From the NCBI GenBank assembly GCA_050251945.1, contig JBFWLW010000005.1, positions 128,001 to 192,000 on the forward strand: a stretch of DNA of 64,000 nucleotides. The letters run 5' to 3'. The position numbers were made by a program, and so were the translations under genes. This DNA is from Deferribacterales bacterium (lineage in GTDB: Bacteria; Chrysiogenota; Deferribacteres; Deferribacterales; Geovibrionaceae). Positions 52,542 to 58,899 of this stretch are shown piece by piece. Numbering within the stretch: the stretch's first letter is position 1; the number at the start of each line of letters is the position of its first letter. The notes below the pieces were generated by a model. It did not search any database and was not told where the DNA came from. It saw only the letters and a program-made list of their open reading frames with translations.

Positions 52542-53801
52542 TTATTTGTTCACCAGTATCTGAAATTTACGTTTACCGTGAGAGCTGTGTTTGCTGACTG
52601 AACCTGCTTCCTTGCGGTATTTTGCGAAGCGGGTGTTCAACTCGTCGGAAAATACTTTCATATCGTGTTCGCGCACAAAGTCCCATCCGAACCATTTCAG
52701 TTTTGTTCCCTGAGGCAGAACGTTCGGCACATCGGGGCATGTTGACGGGAATTTAGCGCCGGAAGAGATGCCGCCCATTACGGAGCCTGTCATGAAGTCA
52801 GTCACAACCTTCATCTTTTCCTCTTTGCCGGCTTTCACCATCATATACATGGGGCTGACAAGGGCGCCCTCTTCGGGGAAGACGATTGATATGTGGTCGG
52901 TGTTGGGGCAGGTGTCTGCAAAGAACCACGCAAGAACGTAGATAGCCGTGCCCTCTTTCATACTGCTGCCTGCGGCTTTCGCCATCTGGGAAGCGTGCCA
53001 TGTGTCCTTTATGTTGCCTGCCATGCTTTTAACGGCTTCTTCGCCGCCGTCCTTATAAATGTGCATAAGGAGGACTTCGTTTATTTCGTCTTCACTGCCG
53101 CTGACGATGATATTGTCCTTGTATATGGGGTTTGCAAGGTCAAGCCAACGCTGAGGAACAGGCAGGTTGCCGAGTTTTTTGTGGTCGATGAGCATGACAT
53201 AAGCTGAGAACGAATAGACGGTGTAATGTTCCAGCGGATCCTTAAGGTCTTTGAATTCCTCGATGTAGGGTTTCGTTTCAACGGCTTTGAAAAGACCTGT
53301 GTCGAGGAAGCGTTCGCGGAAGGGTTTGCGCCAGTATGCGCCGAATCCCAGCGATGCTATCGCGTCGGGCAGGTCGTCTATGTTTTCCGTATCCCATATG
53401 TATTCATAGGGGTCGGGACCGCCGCAGCCCATGGGGACGAAGCTGATGAGCTTTTCGCCCGTTTTTTCGTAATGCCCGTTGAGTGTGCTTTCAAATGCCT
53501 CTTTGAAGAGGTGTTTGAAGGGGCAAACAACGTAGCCGAGGAAATCCGTGCGCACGGCAGGGGTTTCGTCTGTGTAGAGTATTTTGACCTGCGAACAGTT
53601 CTCTGCAGTTTCATTCAGCAGTTTAAGAAATATTCCGGGGTTCAGGCTGCGCAGTTTCATGAAAGATTCAACTGTGAGCGCCGTCATAAAGACGTGGTTA
53701 TTCTGCTCAACGGAGAGACCGTTGGCGATAAATATCGGTCTGGTATCAGGATAGGTTGAGATGACCTCTGAAAGGGTCATTTCGGTGGTGACAAGGGGCA
53801 T
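52542..53801 (-). CDS. SBP-fold protein without signal peptide, N-terminal DUF1858-like domain
   Basis: MTLSEVISTYPDTRPIF N-terminus; VPQRWLDL, PEEGALVSP SBP motifs; GGAGGA SD before ATG 53801. Confidence 0.75.
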   Translation of the reverse strand: MPLVTTEMTLSEVISTYPDTRPIFIANGLSVEQNNHVFMTALTVESFMKLRSLNPGIFLKLLNETAENCSQVKILYTDETPAVRTDFLGYVVCPFKHLFKEAFESTLNGHYEKTGEKLISFVPMGCGGPDPYEYIWDTENIDDLPDAIASLGFGAYWRKPFRERFLDTGLFKAVETKPYIEEFKDLKDPLEHYTVYSFSAYVMLIDHKKLGNLPVPQRWLDLANPIYKDNIIVSGSEDEINEVLLMHIYKDGGEEAVKSMAGNIKDTWHASQMAKAAGSSMKEGTAIYVLAWFFADTCPNTDHISIVFPEEGALVSPMYMMVKAGKEEKMKVVTDFMTGSVMGGISSGAKFPSTCPDVPNVLPQGTKLKWFGWDFVREHDMKVFSDELNTRFAKYRKEAGSVSKHSSHGKRKFQILVNK

Positions 53802-54003
53802 AATATTCCTCCGTAAGTCCGCACAAACGGACACGTTTGATTTCTTATATCCTTTCCCCACAAAAGATATCTTATTAATATAGGCATAAGCCATGTTTAG
53901 CAAACACTTTTTTTCCCTGAAAAATCTGACGGAATCCTTACAAATTGCGGAAAGTTTTATGTCACTTCGGTTCTAGATTAGTAAAAAATAACGAGGTGAC
54001 GAC

Positions 54004-54111: not shown

Positions 54112-54185
54112 AAAAGCCGCATCGACACAAAAGGTCTTTGCGAGGGCGTCTGTCCGAAGCGAACTGTTTTTATATGTAAAATCAT

Positions 54186-54215
54186 TTGACAGATTTGGTC
54201 TGAATATGCCAGAAT
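54186..54215 (+). promoter_or_regulatory. Putative promoter of the riboswitch-nrdD transcript
   Basis: TTGACA 54186-91; TGcCAGAAT extended -10 at 54207-15. Confidence 0.45.
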
Positions 54216-54221
54216 GATTCA

Positions 54222-54360
54222 TCGGGATTCAGGGAAGTCCGGTTAAAATCCGGCACTGCCCCCGCAACTGTAATCCGGACGAAATCCTCATTTTAAGTCA
54301 CTGCGAAAGCGGGAAGACGGAGGAGAGTAGGTTGATGGAAAGTCAGGATACCTGCCCCGT
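54222..54360 (+). ncRNA. Cobalamin riboswitch
   Basis: AGGGAAgtCCGGTtaAAATCCGG, CTGCCCCCGCAACTGTA, CACTG..GGGAAG, B12-box AGTCAGGATACCTGCC. Confidence 0.92.
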
Positions 54361-54465
54361 AGTAACCAGCGGAGGGATGGATGATCTTACATCATTCCAT
54401 TAACACAAATCACACTTTATACGTCTCTGTTGTCATACCCTCCCGCTGTGTCCAGAGGAGGAAAT

Positions 54466-56517
54466 ATGATAGAAAAGGTAAGCAAACGCGACGGACGGTT
54501 CGTTTCGTTTGACGCGGAACGAATAGCCAACGCCATCTATAAGGCGGCGAAGGCTGTCGGCGGTACCGACAGGAATACGTCGTCTGCTCTGTCCATAAAA
54601 GTGTGCCGGAATATCACAGACAAATACGGTCAGTATGGCACAGTGTCCGTTGAAGAGATTCAGGACGAAGTGGAAAAGGTGCTGATCGAGCAGGGGCATG
54701 CGAAGACCGCGAAAGCCTACATCCTTTACAGGAAGCAGAGAGCCGAAATGCGCGATATCAAAGAGGCGTTCGGCGGGCTGGAATCCATCGTTGAGGAGTA
54801 TCTGGGCGGAAGCGACTGGCGCGTTAACGAGAACAGCAACACGACCTATGCCCTGCAGGGACTCAATAACTATATCTCGTCAAAGATTACGGCTAAATAC
54901 TGGCTGAACAAGATATACCCGCAAAACGTCCAGCAGGCGCACGTTAATGGTGAATACCACATCCACGACCTTGGTCTTTTGGCTGTGTACTGCTGCGGCT
55001 GGGACCTGAAAGACCTTCTTACACGCGGTTTCGGCGGCGTTCACGGAAAGGTGGAGAGCAAACCGCCCAAACATCTGCGTTCCGCCATGGGGCAGATAGT
55101 CAATTTCTTTTACACGCTTCAGGGCGAGGCGGCGGGTGCACAGGCTTTTTCCAACTTCGACACGCTCCTTGCCCCGTTTATAGCGTATGACAACCTGACT
55201 TATGCCGAAGTGAAACAGGCGATGCAGGAGTTCATATTCAATCTGAACGTGCCCACGCGCGTGGGATTTCAGACTCCTTTCACCAACCTGACCATGGACT
55301 TATATGTTCCGAAGGCTTTCCGCAACGAAGCGGTGGTCATAGGCGGCGTTCCTCAGGAACGCACCTACGGCGAGTTTCAGGACGAACTTTTCATGTTCAA
55401 CCGCGCCTTCATTGAGGTTATGCAGGAGGGCGACGCGAAGGGCAGGGTATTCACTTTCCCGATCCCGACTTACAACGTTGACAAGGATTTCGACTGGAGT
55501 AATCCCATTGTTACCGAGCTTATGAAGATCACCGCGAAATACGGCACTCCGTACTTTGCCAACTTCGTAAACAGTGACATGAGTCCTGACGACGCGAGAA
55601 GCATGTGCTGTCGTCTGAGACTGGACAACAGAGAGCTTCGCAAACGCGGCGGCGGTTTGTTCGGTGCTAATCCGCTGACGGGTTCCATTGGTGTCGTGAC
55701 GATAAATCTGCCCAGAATAGGCTACACGTCGGGCAATGAAGCGGAATTTTTCAGCAAACTTTCAAACCTTATGGAGCTTGCCAGAGAGGGTCTGAAGATA
55801 AAAAGAAAATCTCTGGAAAAGCTTACATCGAACGGTTTGTATCCTTACAGCAAATATTATCTGTCTGATATTTACGAACGCAACGGGGAATACTGGAAGA
55901 ATCATTTCAATACAATCGGTATAATCGGGATGAACGAATGTCTGCTGAATTTCCTCGGCGTTGGTATCCTGAACCAGCAGGGACTTGAATTCTCCGTGAA
56001 GGTTCTGAATTTCATGCGTGACAAACTCGTCGATTTTCAGGATGAGGACGACATGCTGTACAACCTTGAGGCAACACCCGCCGAAGGAACTTCCTACAGG
56101 CTGGCGAAAAAAGATTTTGCAGACTTCGGCGATATAGTGACATCAGGATCGGCAGAGAGACCCTATTACACCAACTCCACACAGCTTCCGGTGGAACAGA
56201 CCAGAGATCTTTTCAAAGCTCTGTCCCATCAGGATAAATTGCAGCCGCTCTATACCGGAGGCACTGTATTCCACGTCTTTCTCGGCGAGGCGGTGGACAG
56301 ACCTGAGACCGTTTCAAAACTGCTGGAAAACATAACGCAGAGCTATGCAATGCCCTATATAACCATAACGCCAACTTTTTCCGTATGTCCCATACATGGT
56401 TATATCAAAGGCGAGCATAAAGAATGTCCGCTTTGCGAAGAAGAAAAAAAACATGAGATAAGTCTTCAGATTGAAAGACTTAAGAACCAAATAGAACAGG
56501 AGGTATCTAATGGATAA
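54466..56517 (+). CDS. nrdD: Anaerobic (class III) ribonucleotide reductase large subunit, ATP cone, lacking glycyl-radical C-terminus
   Basis: VSKRDG ATP cone, HIHDL, RSMCCRL, EATPAEG, YYTNST, CPIHGY..CPLC Zn site; no RVxGY motif before the stop. Confidence 0.93.
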   Translation: MIEKVSKRDGRFVSFDAERIANAIYKAAKAVGGTDRNTSSALSIKVCRNITDKYGQYGTVSVEEIQDEVEKVLIEQGHAKTAKAYILYRKQRAEMRDIKEAFGGLESIVEEYLGGSDWRVNENSNTTYALQGLNNYISSKITAKYWLNKIYPQNVQQAHVNGEYHIHDLGLLAVYCCGWDLKDLLTRGFGGVHGKVESKPPKHLRSAMGQIVNFFYTLQGEAAGAQAFSNFDTLLAPFIAYDNLTYAEVKQAMQEFIFNLNVPTRVGFQTPFTNLTMDLYVPKAFRNEAVVIGGVPQERTYGEFQDELFMFNRAFIEVMQEGDAKGRVFTFPIPTYNVDKDFDWSNPIVTELMKITAKYGTPYFANFVNSDMSPDDARSMCCRLRLDNRELRKRGGGLFGANPLTGSIGVVTINLPRIGYTSGNEAEFFSKLSNLMELAREGLKIKRKSLEKLTSNGLYPYSKYYLSDIYERNGEYWKNHFNTIGIIGMNECLLNFLGVGILNQQGLEFSVKVLNFMRDKLVDFQDEDDMLYNLEATPAEGTSYRLAKKDFADFGDIVTSGSAERPYYTNSTQLPVEQTRDLFKALSHQDKLQPLYTGGTVFHVFLGEAVDRPETVSKLLENITQSYAMPYITITPTFSVCPIHGYIKGEHKECPLCEEEKKHEISLQIERLKNQIEQEVSNG

Positions 56518-56677
56518 GAAAGAAGAACTGCAAAAACTGGAAACTGAGCTGGACAGCGTGAAGGGTACGCCCTGTGACGTTTACAGCCGCGTGGTAGGTT
56601 ACCACAGCCCCGTTAAACAATGGAACGAGGGCAAGAAAGAGGAATTTGAACACAGAGAGACCTTTCAGGTTAAATAA
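56510..56677 (+). CDS. Stand-alone NrdD glycyl-radical domain (55 aa, not in ORF track)
   Basis: CAGGAGGT SD; MDKKEELQKLETELDSVKGTPCDVYSRVVGYHSPVKQWNEGKKEEFEHRETFQVK*; stop overlaps the nrdG ATG. Confidence 0.9.
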   Translation: MDKKEELQKLETELDSVKGTPCDVYSRVVGYHSPVKQWNEGKKEEFEHRETFQVK

Positions 56678-57354
56678 TGACAGAATATGACTTTTTTCTT
56701 GCAGATTATCAGCATGTGAGCCTGGTGGAATACCCGGGAAAAATCTCATCCATAGCTTTCACCCACGGGTGCAACATAAGATGCAGATATTGCCACAATC
56801 CTTCCCTTGCTGTCGGCAGAAAGGGGTCAAATAAGCTGGCTGATTTTCTTAACTACCTGAATGGTAAGGATATCGAGGCCGTCGCCGTAACAGGCGGCGA
56901 GCCTCTTTTTTCAAAAAATCTGCATCTGTTTCTTGAAGACCTTAAATTAAGAGGGCTTGCGGTGAAGCTGGACACCAACGGGTTTCTGCCTGTCAAATTG
57001 GCAAAAATACTTGACGCAGGACTCGCGGATTACGTCGCAGTTGATCTGAAATCTTTTTCACCGGAAGACCTTAAGAGTATCGTAAGGACACCGCACAAAC
57101 AGGATTCTTTCTATAAGACAGTTGAGGCGCTTAAGATATTCGGAGTACCCTTCGAGGTGCGGCATACCATGTGGAAGATGCCCCTTGAGGCTGATGTCGC
57201 CGCTGTCGCTGAATATATCGGCGATGCGCCTTTTTATGTTCAGACGCTTCGGGATACGCGTATGCTGGATAAGTCTTTCAAACCGGAGATTTTTGACCGA
57301 AGCGGTGCAGTAAAGCTCATTGAAAAATATGTTAAGAACGTCAGAGTACGTTAA
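56677..57354 (+). CDS. nrdG: Class III RNR activating radical-SAM enzyme
   Basis: SLVEYPG, CNIRCRYCHNP, TGGEP, KLDTNG. Confidence 0.92.
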   Translation: MTEYDFFLADYQHVSLVEYPGKISSIAFTHGCNIRCRYCHNPSLAVGRKGSNKLADFLNYLNGKDIEAVAVTGGEPLFSKNLHLFLEDLKLRGLAVKLDTNGFLPVKLAKILDAGLADYVAVDLKSFSPEDLKSIVRTPHKQDSFYKTVEALKIFGVPFEVRHTMWKMPLEADVAAVAEYIGDAPFYVQTLRDTRMLDKSFKPEIFDRSGAVKLIEKYVKNVRVR

Positions 57355-57624: not shown

Positions 57625-58899
57625 TTAAATTCCGGCTATCTGCTGTGCTGTTTCCGTTGCGTAATTGTCTGTCATACCTGAAATATAATCGGTCACTCTG
57701 TGCAGAGCCTCAAAAACGGTTTCGTCTTTTACGGGCGCGTGGTCGCCCATTATCTTTATGATATGCTGTGTTTTGTCGCTTGACTCAATTTTTGTAATGT
57801 GGTCGTATGCCGCCTCACAGAAGGTTTCCAGAAGTATCCCAAGGATATTATACGCTCCGACCTCAAGTACCAGCTTGCGCCTGTTATTGTAGATAAGCTC
57901 ACTGCTGATTTTTTTTATTCCGGATACCTCTTCGCTGAAAGCCGACTTTTCAAGAAGGTTGTGTTTATACGGGAGAGAGCCGTCTATTATTGCATCTTCG
58001 TTTTTGATAAATTCGCTGACAACGGCGTTGACACAGTTATTTATTGCGATAGCCCTGAGATATGCGATTATTTCTTTGTCCGTTTTGCCTGAAAGTTTGT
58101 CGTCCGTTTTTTTGCATATGCTGTTGAGCAGTTCCTTTACTTCCGCAAACCGCAGAATGCCCATTTCGTATGCGTCTTCAAGGTCGATTATGCTGTAACA
58201 GATGTCGTCAGCCGCTTCGGAAAGATAGGCAAGGGGGTGGCGGCAGTAAATGCCGTCTGTGCCGTTCAGCCCTGTTTTTGCGGCGATATCGTCCAGTATC
58301 TCCCTTTCGCTGCTGAAACAGCAGAATTTTTTGATGTTTTCCTGATATATCCACGGGTATTTCATCATAGCGGTTATGACGGCGTATGTAGGACGCAGTC
58401 CTCCGCTGTCTCTGTACATTGCTGTCCGCGTCATGATTCTGAATGCCTGAGCATTGCCCTCGAAATGTGTGAAATCATTTATTTGGGATTCGGATAAGGA
58501 ATCGAAATATTTGCTGCCGCGTTCTTCAAACCATTTTCCGATGATGGTTTCGCCCATATGACCGAAGGGCGGGTTGCCTATGTCGTGTGCCAGACATGCC
58601 GCCTGAACTATCTGTCCGACGCGGTCTGATGTCATGTGCGGCGGAAGGTCTTTTATCTGCGCGCCGACAAGGGTGCCGAGGCTTCTGCCAACGCATGAAA
58701 CTTCGAGGCTGTGGGGGAGGCGGGAGTGTACGTTGTCGTTGCTGCGCATGGGGTGAACCTGTGTTTTGCGATCCAGTCTGCGGAAGGAGTCGGAGAAGAT
58801 TATCCGGTCGAAATCTACGCTGAAAGGATTTCGCGCGTCGTCGAACTCCCTTTCGTTTTCGTTCAGTCTGTTATAGTTAAGCAGCTTGTTCCACTGCAT
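57625..58899 (-). CDS. dgt: dGTP triphosphohydrolase (HD family)
   Basis: FRRLDRKTQV, HSLEV, LAHDIGNPPFGH, FEGNAQ, EAADDICY, SGMTD. Confidence 0.92.
   Translation of the reverse strand: MQWNKLLNYNRLNENEREFDDARNPFSVDFDRIIFSDSFRRLDRKTQVHPMRSNDNVHSRLPHSLEVSCVGRSLGTLVGAQIKDLPPHMTSDRVGQIVQAACLAHDIGNPPFGHMGETIIGKWFEERGSKYFDSLSESQINDFTHFEGNAQAFRIMTRTAMYRDSGGLRPTYAVITAMMKYPWIYQENIKKFCCFSSEREILDDIAAKTGLNGTDGIYCRHPLAYLSEAADDICYSIIDLEDAYEMGILRFAEVKELLNSICKKTDDKLSGKTDKEIIAYLRAIAINNCVNAVVSEFIKNEDAIIDGSLPYKHNLLEKSAFSEEVSGIKKISSELIYNNRRKLVLEVGAYNILGILLETFCEAAYDHITKIESSDKTQHIIKIMGDHAPVKDETVFEALHRVTDYISGMTDNYATETAQQIAGI

Follow-up and report, generated by a model that had tools for sequence, protein, structure and literature searches.

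An apparent two-subunit form of the class III ribonucleotide reductase NrdD in Deferribacterota, with the glycyl radical motif predicted on a separate 55-residue protein

Introduction

The closest described relatives of the enzyme reported here are the single-chain NrdD proteins of class III ribonucleotide reductase (RNR) and their activase NrdG, as known from P. copri (8P23), T. maritima (4COI and 4U3E) and phage T4 (1H78). Here we describe an nrdD locus of a Deferribacterales bacterium that has the same ATP-cone, barrel and finger loop, the same zinc (Zn) ribbon with Cys/His/Cys/Cys ligands, the same glycyl loop motif and an adjacent nrdG gene. Unlike in single-chain NrdD, however, the chain ends after the Zn ribbon, and the glycyl loop follows on a radical carrier that appears to be translated separately. 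The locus lies in a stretch of 64,000 nucleotides (hereafter the window; contig JBFWLW010000005.1 of assembly GCA_050251945.1, positions 128,001 to 192,000 of the forward strand), and positions are counted from the first letter of the window. It seems to represent a conserved two-subunit form of a known enzyme that is apparently undescribed, as we found no description of a split class III RNR in the main text of the open-access literature.

Oxygen cleaves glycyl radical enzymes at the glycine that bears the radical, and to our knowledge all such enzymes described so far carry this glycine on the catalytic chain. Y06I of phage T4 is reportedly an autonomous glycyl radical cofactor for pyruvate formate-lyase in a phage-borne copy. 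A precedent for an RNR catalytic chain encoded by two genes is said to be the split class II NrdJa/NrdJb of Pseudomonas aeruginosa, attributed to Crona et al. 2015, although this pair reportedly belongs to another class with another cofactor and its break point is unrelated to the radical-bearing loop. GrcA/YfiD of E. coli and Y06I are, like the small protein described below, small free-standing proteins with a glycyl radical loop that dock into a large body. Section 5.3 of a 2026 review treats such small spare-part proteins as known only for formate lyases (PMC13450708). According to the structural report on the T. maritima NrdD (PMC4493059), Zn is bound by a Cys/His/Cys/Cys motif in a ribbon that separates the final strand of the barrel from the glycyl loop, and the activase can reach the buried glycine only once it has moved outwards.

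Results

Three open reading frames (ORFs) on the forward strand, with overlapping start and stop codons, make up the region 54466-57354: nrdD, a small ORF and nrdG (Table 1). The large ORF matches the Pfam family PF13597 (NRDD) with 609.3 bits over profile positions 1-532 of 562, and the small ORF matches the same family with 35.0 bits (cut-off 26.2) over positions 532-562, which is exactly the part missing from the large ORF. The NCBIfam model NF006126, which has 684 positions, is divided between positions 2-659 in the large ORF (1034.3 bits, cut-off 548) and 648-683 in the small one. Because these spans are complementary, the two ORFs together correspond to one NrdD with about 30 extra residues at the break. 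By the criteria for class III RNR the pair jointly fits the definition of NrdD and neither ORF alone does. The only class III sequence feature that the catalytic chain lacks is the glycyl radical motif (R-V-x-G-Y), which sits on the 55-residue ORF instead, and a regular expression search for R-x-x-G-[YFW] found no match in the 683 residues of the large ORF. From its sequence, the motif with the radical glycine is predicted to lie on a separately translated 55-residue protein. Databases currently name both pieces 'anaerobic ribonucleoside-triphosphate reductase'.

Table 1. Positions of the features of the nrdD operon within the window.
Feature	Position	Strand	Basis
Cobalamin riboswitch, leader of the nrdD operon	54180..54373	+	Rfam RF00174
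nrdD large subunit, 683 residues	54466..56517	+	PF13597, PF03477, NF006126
Zn ribbon ligands C641-x2-H644 ... C654-x2-C657, all on the large subunit	56386..56436	+	Conservation in 39 sequences
Predicted C-terminal amphipathic helix of the large subunit, residues 655-682; heptad I665, I669, L672, I676, V680	56428..56511	+	AlphaFold2
Shine-Dalgarno site CAGGAGGT of the small ORF, within the 3' end of nrdD	56497..56504	+	Read from sequence
Small subunit ORF, 55 residues, +1 frame relative to nrdD	56510..56677	+	PF13597
nrdG activase (radical S-adenosylmethionine), 225 residues	56677..57354	+	TIGR02495, PF04055

The ATP-cone of the large ORF covers residues 4-93 (PF03477, 76.9 bits) and the NRDD barrel residues 122-662. 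The finger loop reads SMCCRL at residues 379-384 (M380-R383) and aligns with 'tmgcR' of 8p23; this double-Cys form is that of the T. maritima lineage, and we use the label 'double-Cys motif' as it appears in the relevant part of PMC9669993. Sequence matches in the PDB were 8p23 (E 4.4e-42), 4coi (7.8e-29) and 1h78 (6e-19), and a phmmer search of the 55-residue ORF against PDB sequences gave no match with E up to 1, the query being too short. All four Zn ribbon ligands are present; all 39 sequences compared keep the three Cys, and residue 644 is either His or Cys. The small protein consists, in this order, of a helix at residues 3-16 (L7, L10, L14, V17), the linker KGTPC, the loop YSRVVG30Y and a helix with the sequence WNEGKKEEF..R, with Gly30 encoded at 56597-56599. 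Twelve of its residues are invariant in 39 copies (G19, V24, Y25, R27, V29, G30, Y31, W38, N39, K42, E45 and R49), 16 are invariant among 8 diverse copies, and the last 79 residues of the large protein contain 14 that are invariant in 39 sequences. The nrdG product matches TIGR02495 (NrdG2) with 136.3 bits (cut-off 131.15) and PF04055 with 76 bits.

The nrdD gene starts with the ATG at 54466, or alternatively with a TTG at 54430, and stops at 56515-56517. Its product ends in CPIHGYIKGEHKECPLCEEEKKHEISLQIERLKNQIEQEVSNG, and the tail after the Zn ribbon is 26 residues long. The Shine-Dalgarno site CAGGAGGT is 5 nt from the ATG of the small ORF, which overlaps the nrdD stop within ATGGATAA; the two ORFs, which lie in neighbouring frames, share 8 nt. 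The stop of the small ORF in turn overlaps the ATG of nrdG (TAATG, 56675-56679). A preliminary description of this DNA had read NrdD as stopping after its Zn site with an amphipathic tail and without RVxGY, and had placed a heptad-like helix followed by YSRVVGY and WNEGK on a 55-residue ORF in another frame with its own Shine-Dalgarno site and a stop overlapping the nrdG ATG. The regular expression search and the Pfam span agree with the former reading, and the latter is confirmed in all its parts, including the motifs (PF13597) and the helix (AlphaFold2).

The split is found unchanged in independently assembled contigs. Logan contigs of run X1, possibly the source of the assembly, cover 56200-56900 with 0 differences and 0 gaps; those of X2 (56344-56604) and of X3 from another study (56438-56652) likewise have 0 differences and 0 gaps, and X1 also contains a diverged strain whose sequence over 56435-56683 differs at 23 positions and is free of gaps. 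Insertions or deletions at the junction are thus absent from the Logan contigs of three runs from two studies, and an indel at 56490-56520 that would restore a single ORF, one of the outcomes that would have refuted the preliminary description, does not occur in them.

Searching with the 55-residue protein gave matches in 27 of 41 related genomes, each in an open frame of 59-111 residues. At the level of the phylum, 33 of 68 genomes had 34 matches, of which 32 lie in frames of 59-182 residues and two in full-length frames (710 and 761 residues). This recurrence of the small ORF in short frames of relatives is far beyond chance. An NrdD body was detected by Pfam family search in 36 of the 68 Deferribacterota genomes and, on reading the Pfam match table together with the DNA, we assigned 33 of these as split, two as single-chain (G046 and G065) and one as cut by a contig end (G031). 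The junction overlap is 8 nt in all seven genomes of the genus of the window. Other Deferribacterota have overlaps of 4 or 1 nt or spacers, mostly of 1 to 36 nt and of 87 nt in locus L021, and all three relative frames of the large and small ORFs occur. In every related junction that we inspected the small ORF is preceded by a GGAGG-type Shine-Dalgarno site and an ATG. The conserved split with its own ribosome binding site in relatives, which the preliminary description had proposed as a check, is therefore found.

Some junctions have particular forms. In L008 (G010) and L193 (G044) both ORFs lie in one frame with one stop codon and 5-12 codons between them, where read-through of that single stop codon would yield one chain with a helix hairpin. 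Locus L018/L028 (G037:C105) contains, about 400 nt away from its small ORF and after an AT-rich stretch, a further copy of this ORF that is incomplete; it comprises the loop and the C-terminal helix, without the N-terminal helix and without an obvious start codon.

The break point is the joint between the Zn ribbon and the glycyl loop, with all four Zn ligands staying on the large piece. Single-chain relatives (35 loci) have 3-4 residues between the last Zn Cys and the conserved strand C-E-V-Y-S-R-V-V-G-Y, whereas about 45 residues, predicted to form two amphipathic helices, lie at the break. We considered a Zn site bridging the subunits through Cys22 of the small protein and rejected it, as the four ligands are already on the large piece; Cys22 is moreover replaced by Thr in the spirochaete copies (3 of 39) and in the spare-type ORFs described below.

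For the last 79 residues of the large protein AlphaFold2 predicts a helix at 51-78 (mean predicted local distance difference test scores, or pLDDT, of 96, 95 and 81 in 10-residue blocks), and for the small protein helices at 3-16 (block means 85 and 80) and 38-45. The rest of the small protein is predicted with low confidence, which is expected because the loop needs its barrel. Among 39 pairs, strong hydrophobic residues occupy columns 61, 65, 68 and 72 of the large tail in 100, 100, 97 and 74% of sequences and columns 17, 20, 24 and 27 of the small protein in 97, 97, 90 and 82%. The heptad spacing of 4-3-4 is conserved on both helices, with charged residues between, so that the a/d hydrophobics expected of a heterodimeric coiled coil are present on both predicted helices. 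With a threshold of three layers (a threshold of four was noisy), all 40 helix-type split loci have at least three heptad layers on both sides. Heptad helices occur in none of the 35 single-chain loci, where the whole linker to the Y-S-R motif measures 6-11 residues, and a small-side heptad helix in none of the nine helix-less split loci. As the ends at the joint are 3-4 residues apart in single-chain proteins, the helices would be antiparallel, in the manner of a hairpin. A complex prediction from two alignments, the last 79 residues of the large protein and the small protein, scored 0.17 and 0.16 against a mark of 0.32, with the large protein cut to its tail and no controls run, and these values weigh neither for nor against binding. 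We chose the truncated input because a full-length pair passes merely by its likeness to solved single-chain NrdDs.

A scan with one genome per species yielded at least 590 confirmed relatives of the small protein, and the best 80 of these were examined together with 28 loci from relatives of the window's genome. Two of these 108 loci are duplicates and were set aside (L002 is the window itself and L028 repeats L018). Of the remaining 106, we counted the 84 whose NrdD body extends for 400 residues or more ahead of the Zn motif; the 22 left out are short contigs, orphan small ORFs or loci whose Zn motif was missed by the regular expression. The 84 loci comprise 35 single-chain and 49 split forms. 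Helices on both sides are found in 40 of the split loci, from Deferribacterota, Elusimicrobiota, Spirochaetota and Goldbacteria, and a Hippea locus too short for the count has the same helix-type layout. In the remaining nine split loci the small piece lacks a helix, and Halanaerobium and Pyramidobacter have nrdG placed between nrdD and the small ORF. In one Deferribacterota family an E. coli-like NrdD occurs with an E. coli-like NrdG (L191 at G039:C104:6300-6900, L194 in G047 and L195 in G026). When 1.84 billion representatives were searched with a profile of the small protein, 4683 matches with E up to 0.001 were obtained; among the best 150 of these, all of 54-231 residues, there was no single-chain protein with the helix pair. 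At 50% identity, the helix-type small proteins fall into at least 150 clusters. The preliminary description had guessed that short stand-alone ORFs of NrdD type exist elsewhere, and they prove to be very widespread.

The bodies of the helix-type enzymes do not appear to form a single group. On a FastTree phylogeny of the 84 bodies the helix-type label needs 4 changes, at least 3 of which are forced by well-supported branches, and an IQ-TREE phylogeny of 51 chosen representatives, without near-duplicates and the long branches L074, L090 and L099, gave the same counts. A single clade of all helix-type bodies is rejected by the approximately unbiased (AU) test with p-AU of 1.1e-8 under LG+G4 and 2.9e-5 under LG+C20+F+G4 with posterior mean site frequencies (PMSF), values that are generous since the group was named after the first tree had been inspected. 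This result allows convergent gain, repeated re-fusion, or a transfer of the 3' module (tail and small gene) independent of the body.

Related sequences on predicted viral contigs were sampled as the best 80 of 408 relatives in IMG/VR (L109-L188). Regular expressions identified 78 glycine-motif ORFs at these loci. Complete NrdDs account for 7 of them; the other 71 are short ORFs around which no NrdD body, recognised by its Zn ribbon, lies within 3 kb, and in many of these the helix is present.

Further variants of the small protein were noted in the cellular loci. Orphan copies of the small ORF lie beside integrase and phage-like genes in Elusimicrobia (L053:2989-3210 and L066:2947-3201). ORFs of 96-112 residues with their own CxxC...CxxC ribbon and glycyl loop occur at L061:3147-3437, L062:3125-3418, L064:3116-3415, L102:2767-3105 and in L027 (G027:C171), three of them directly 3' of a complete single-chain NrdD in Paceibacterota. 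Judged by sequence, they resemble genuine spares of the complete C-terminal domain. Small subunits of 140-231 residues, mostly spirochaete-like, combine the N-terminal helix and glycyl loop with a C-terminal domain resembling glutaredoxin or thioredoxin (C-P-x-C; P0035, P0046, P0052, P0066, P0073 and P0159, and loci L049, L058 and L069), and this domain passes the Pfam cut-off in three of six tested. In such proteins the radical carrier and a likely reductant would be fused. Cys-rich C-terminal tails, C-G-C-G-C and similar, are found in Elusimicrobiota (L033, L036-L041, L046-L048, L054 and L057) and C-C or C-x-C tails in two Deferribacterota (L019 and L025), while the copy in the window has no Cys tail. 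The Cys-rich tails recall the redox-shuttling C-terminal Cys pairs of class I and II RNRs.

The genome of the window has exactly one NrdD, the split one, and the small ORF is single copy. No match to PF01228, the Gly_radical family of pyruvate formate-lyase type, was found in the whole genome, with control genomes positive. NrdG is intact and, since this NrdD is the only one and PF01228 proteins are absent, Gly30 is its only candidate substrate glycine. The other RNR is a B12-dependent class II NrdJ of 769 residues (G000:C5:221188-223497; NF006417, 1204.7 bits, cut-off 961). The riboswitch in front of nrdD matches RF00174 with 83.1 bits (gathering threshold 31.5, E 3.6e-20) over positions 1-189 of 189. 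A B12 riboswitch before a B12-independent isozyme, in a genome that also has a B12-dependent one, follows a known regulatory logic, and B12 would here switch off the B12-independent enzyme through the riboswitch of the nrdD operon. Upstream of the riboswitch and divergent from it, an ORF of 421-453 residues on the reverse strand (52542-53903) has no NCBIfam match with E up to 1e-5. A dGTP triphosphohydrolase gene on the reverse strand (57625-58899; NF002205, 492.9 bits, cut-off 439) converges on the end of the nrdD-small ORF-nrdG operon, which places a gene for degrading deoxyribonucleoside triphosphates next to an operon for making them.

Discussion

We consider it probable that the two proteins form an obligate two-piece NrdD with a helix tether, which receives its radical from NrdG. 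The large protein, with its ATP-cone, barrel, Zn ribbon and C-terminal helix, and the small protein, with its helix and glycyl loop, would together be the holoenzyme, a proposal based on their homology to single-chain NrdD, in which the barrel houses the C-terminal loop next to the finger loop. The small protein likely puts its loop into the barrel of the large subunit, and antiparallel pairing of the helices is predicted to tether it there. NrdG would install the radical on the small protein, and with the tether the loop could move out to NrdG and return while staying attached.

This proposal presupposes that the split is genuine, and the sequences suggest that it is real, ancient and under selection. 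An artefact, a pseudogene or a single protein made by ribosomal frameshifting or read-through would fit the 8-nt overlap in neighbouring frames in this genome, but such explanations appear extremely unlikely to us. The independent contigs have no indel, and the split in 33 of 36 genomes of the phylum comes with varied geometry, including spacers of 16-36 nt and three frames. In the inspected junctions a Shine-Dalgarno site and an ATG belong to the small ORF itself, its residues are strongly conserved, nrdG is intact and the riboswitch is present. The variety of the junctions excludes a shared frameshift, a recoding signal or a single sequencing artefact, and for the same reason we rejected programmed frameshifting or read-through as the way in which the enzyme is made. 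It is improbable, in our opinion, that the helices bind NrdG or link the halves of an NrdD dimer instead of each other. The tail helix does begin inside the Zn ribbon, a domain that the relevant part of PMC4493059 mentions as once conjectured to touch the activase. Single-chain relatives with the same NrdG2-type activase, however, have neither helix, both helices always occur together, and the linker of 3-4 residues sets their near ends side by side.

Several observations nevertheless weigh against the helix-tethered enzyme as we propose it. A paired comparison on the tree of helix presence on the large and on the small piece found 1-3 pairs that agree and none opposite, with p values of 0.25-1 and no power at so few independent contrasts, and helix lengths show no obvious covariation between clades (tails of 19-26 and N-terminal segments of 22-30 residues). 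The split loci without a helix on the small piece come from Halanaerobium, Pyramidobacter, Dojkabacteria, Nanobdellota and others. A further NrdD subtype, E. coli-like and with the motif R-I-T-G-Y, is broken just after its Zn ribbon in three Deferribacterota genomes; it has no heptad helices, and the break is apparently an independent one at the same joint. Because of these helix-less and E. coli-like splits, a helix dock is not needed for a split NrdD to persist. No RNA runs over 56200-56900 are listed, and the expression of the small ORF is predicted from its sequence. The contact between the helices is plausible from their co-occurrence and the linker geometry. The preliminary description had the small subunit docked by a coiled coil; the separate subunit, the conserved predicted helices and their co-occurrence agree with it, while the pairing itself is only plausible.

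Several explanations may be offered for the persistence of the split. Neutral gene fission at a permissive joint between Zn ribbon and glycyl loop, in which the helices were added afterwards as a compensating tether and repair gained nothing, is possible if on the whole doubtful. The break is found at the same point in unrelated NrdD lineages, with helices, without helices and in the E. coli-like subtype, the helix-type split requires 4 changes on the tree with at least 3 of them forced, and the AU test rejects a single clade. That test used a group named only after the first tree, however, and the near-fixation in a whole phylum and the carriage of the small piece by phages suggest some benefit. 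An exchangeable cartridge, in which NrdG charges the small protein on or off the enzyme and the small protein is swapped after oxygen cleavage at Gly30, would supply such a benefit, and we put this forward tentatively. Oxygen damage would then cost 55 residues and not 683, and this saving might, though we rather doubt it, explain why the split was kept. The 71 of 78 viral glycine-motif ORFs without a body would suit such an exchange, because a small piece carried without a body must be able to join one made elsewhere. So would the orphan copies beside integrase and phage-like genes in Elusimicrobia and the extra ribbon-plus-loop ORFs directly behind complete single-chain NrdDs in L061, L062 and L064, and GrcA acts in this way for pyruvate formate-lyase, according to section 5.3 of PMC13450708 and the abstract of PMC8683613. 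On the other hand, the small ORF is single copy here and its translation is tightly coupled to nrdD and nrdG, which looks stoichiometric and not like a surplus, and the N-terminal fragment left by cleavage at Gly30 would still bear the docking helix and might obstruct a replacement.

The comparison with GrcA has limits in the obligate two-piece enzyme that we favour. The small ORF belongs to another family (PF13597, with no match to PF01228), and it has a heptad helix where the N-terminus of GrcA is disordered, as stated in the section on GrcA in PMC13450708. GrcA is a reserve for an enzyme already equipped with a loop; the NrdD body here has none, and the small protein must be obligate. The spare role of GrcA type that the preliminary description had envisaged does not apply in this genome, since the small protein is its only glycine carrier. 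A detachable cofactor in the full sense in many kinds of anaerobes, a peptide of about 55 residues charged by NrdG, with a helix latch, an oxygen-triggered swap, phage-carried cartridges and a latch that has arisen or moved at least three times, is an idea that we regard as speculative. The split may persist through cheap replacement, activation in trans, or neutral fission with a compensating tether.

A separate radical loop of 6 kDa would make it testable whether the activase works on a loop outside the barrel. The two-piece NrdD would also open experimental access to the entry and exit of the loop and to the exchange of radical parts after oxygen damage. The small protein would be a minimal natural substrate of NrdG, well suited to electron paramagnetic resonance (EPR) and structural work. 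For annotation, the two pieces that now carry the name of the whole enzyme would be corrected. The split would also explain the tiny 'NrdD' genes of phages and, if the exchange of small proteins is true, phages would exploit it by carrying only the radical piece for the enzyme of their host.

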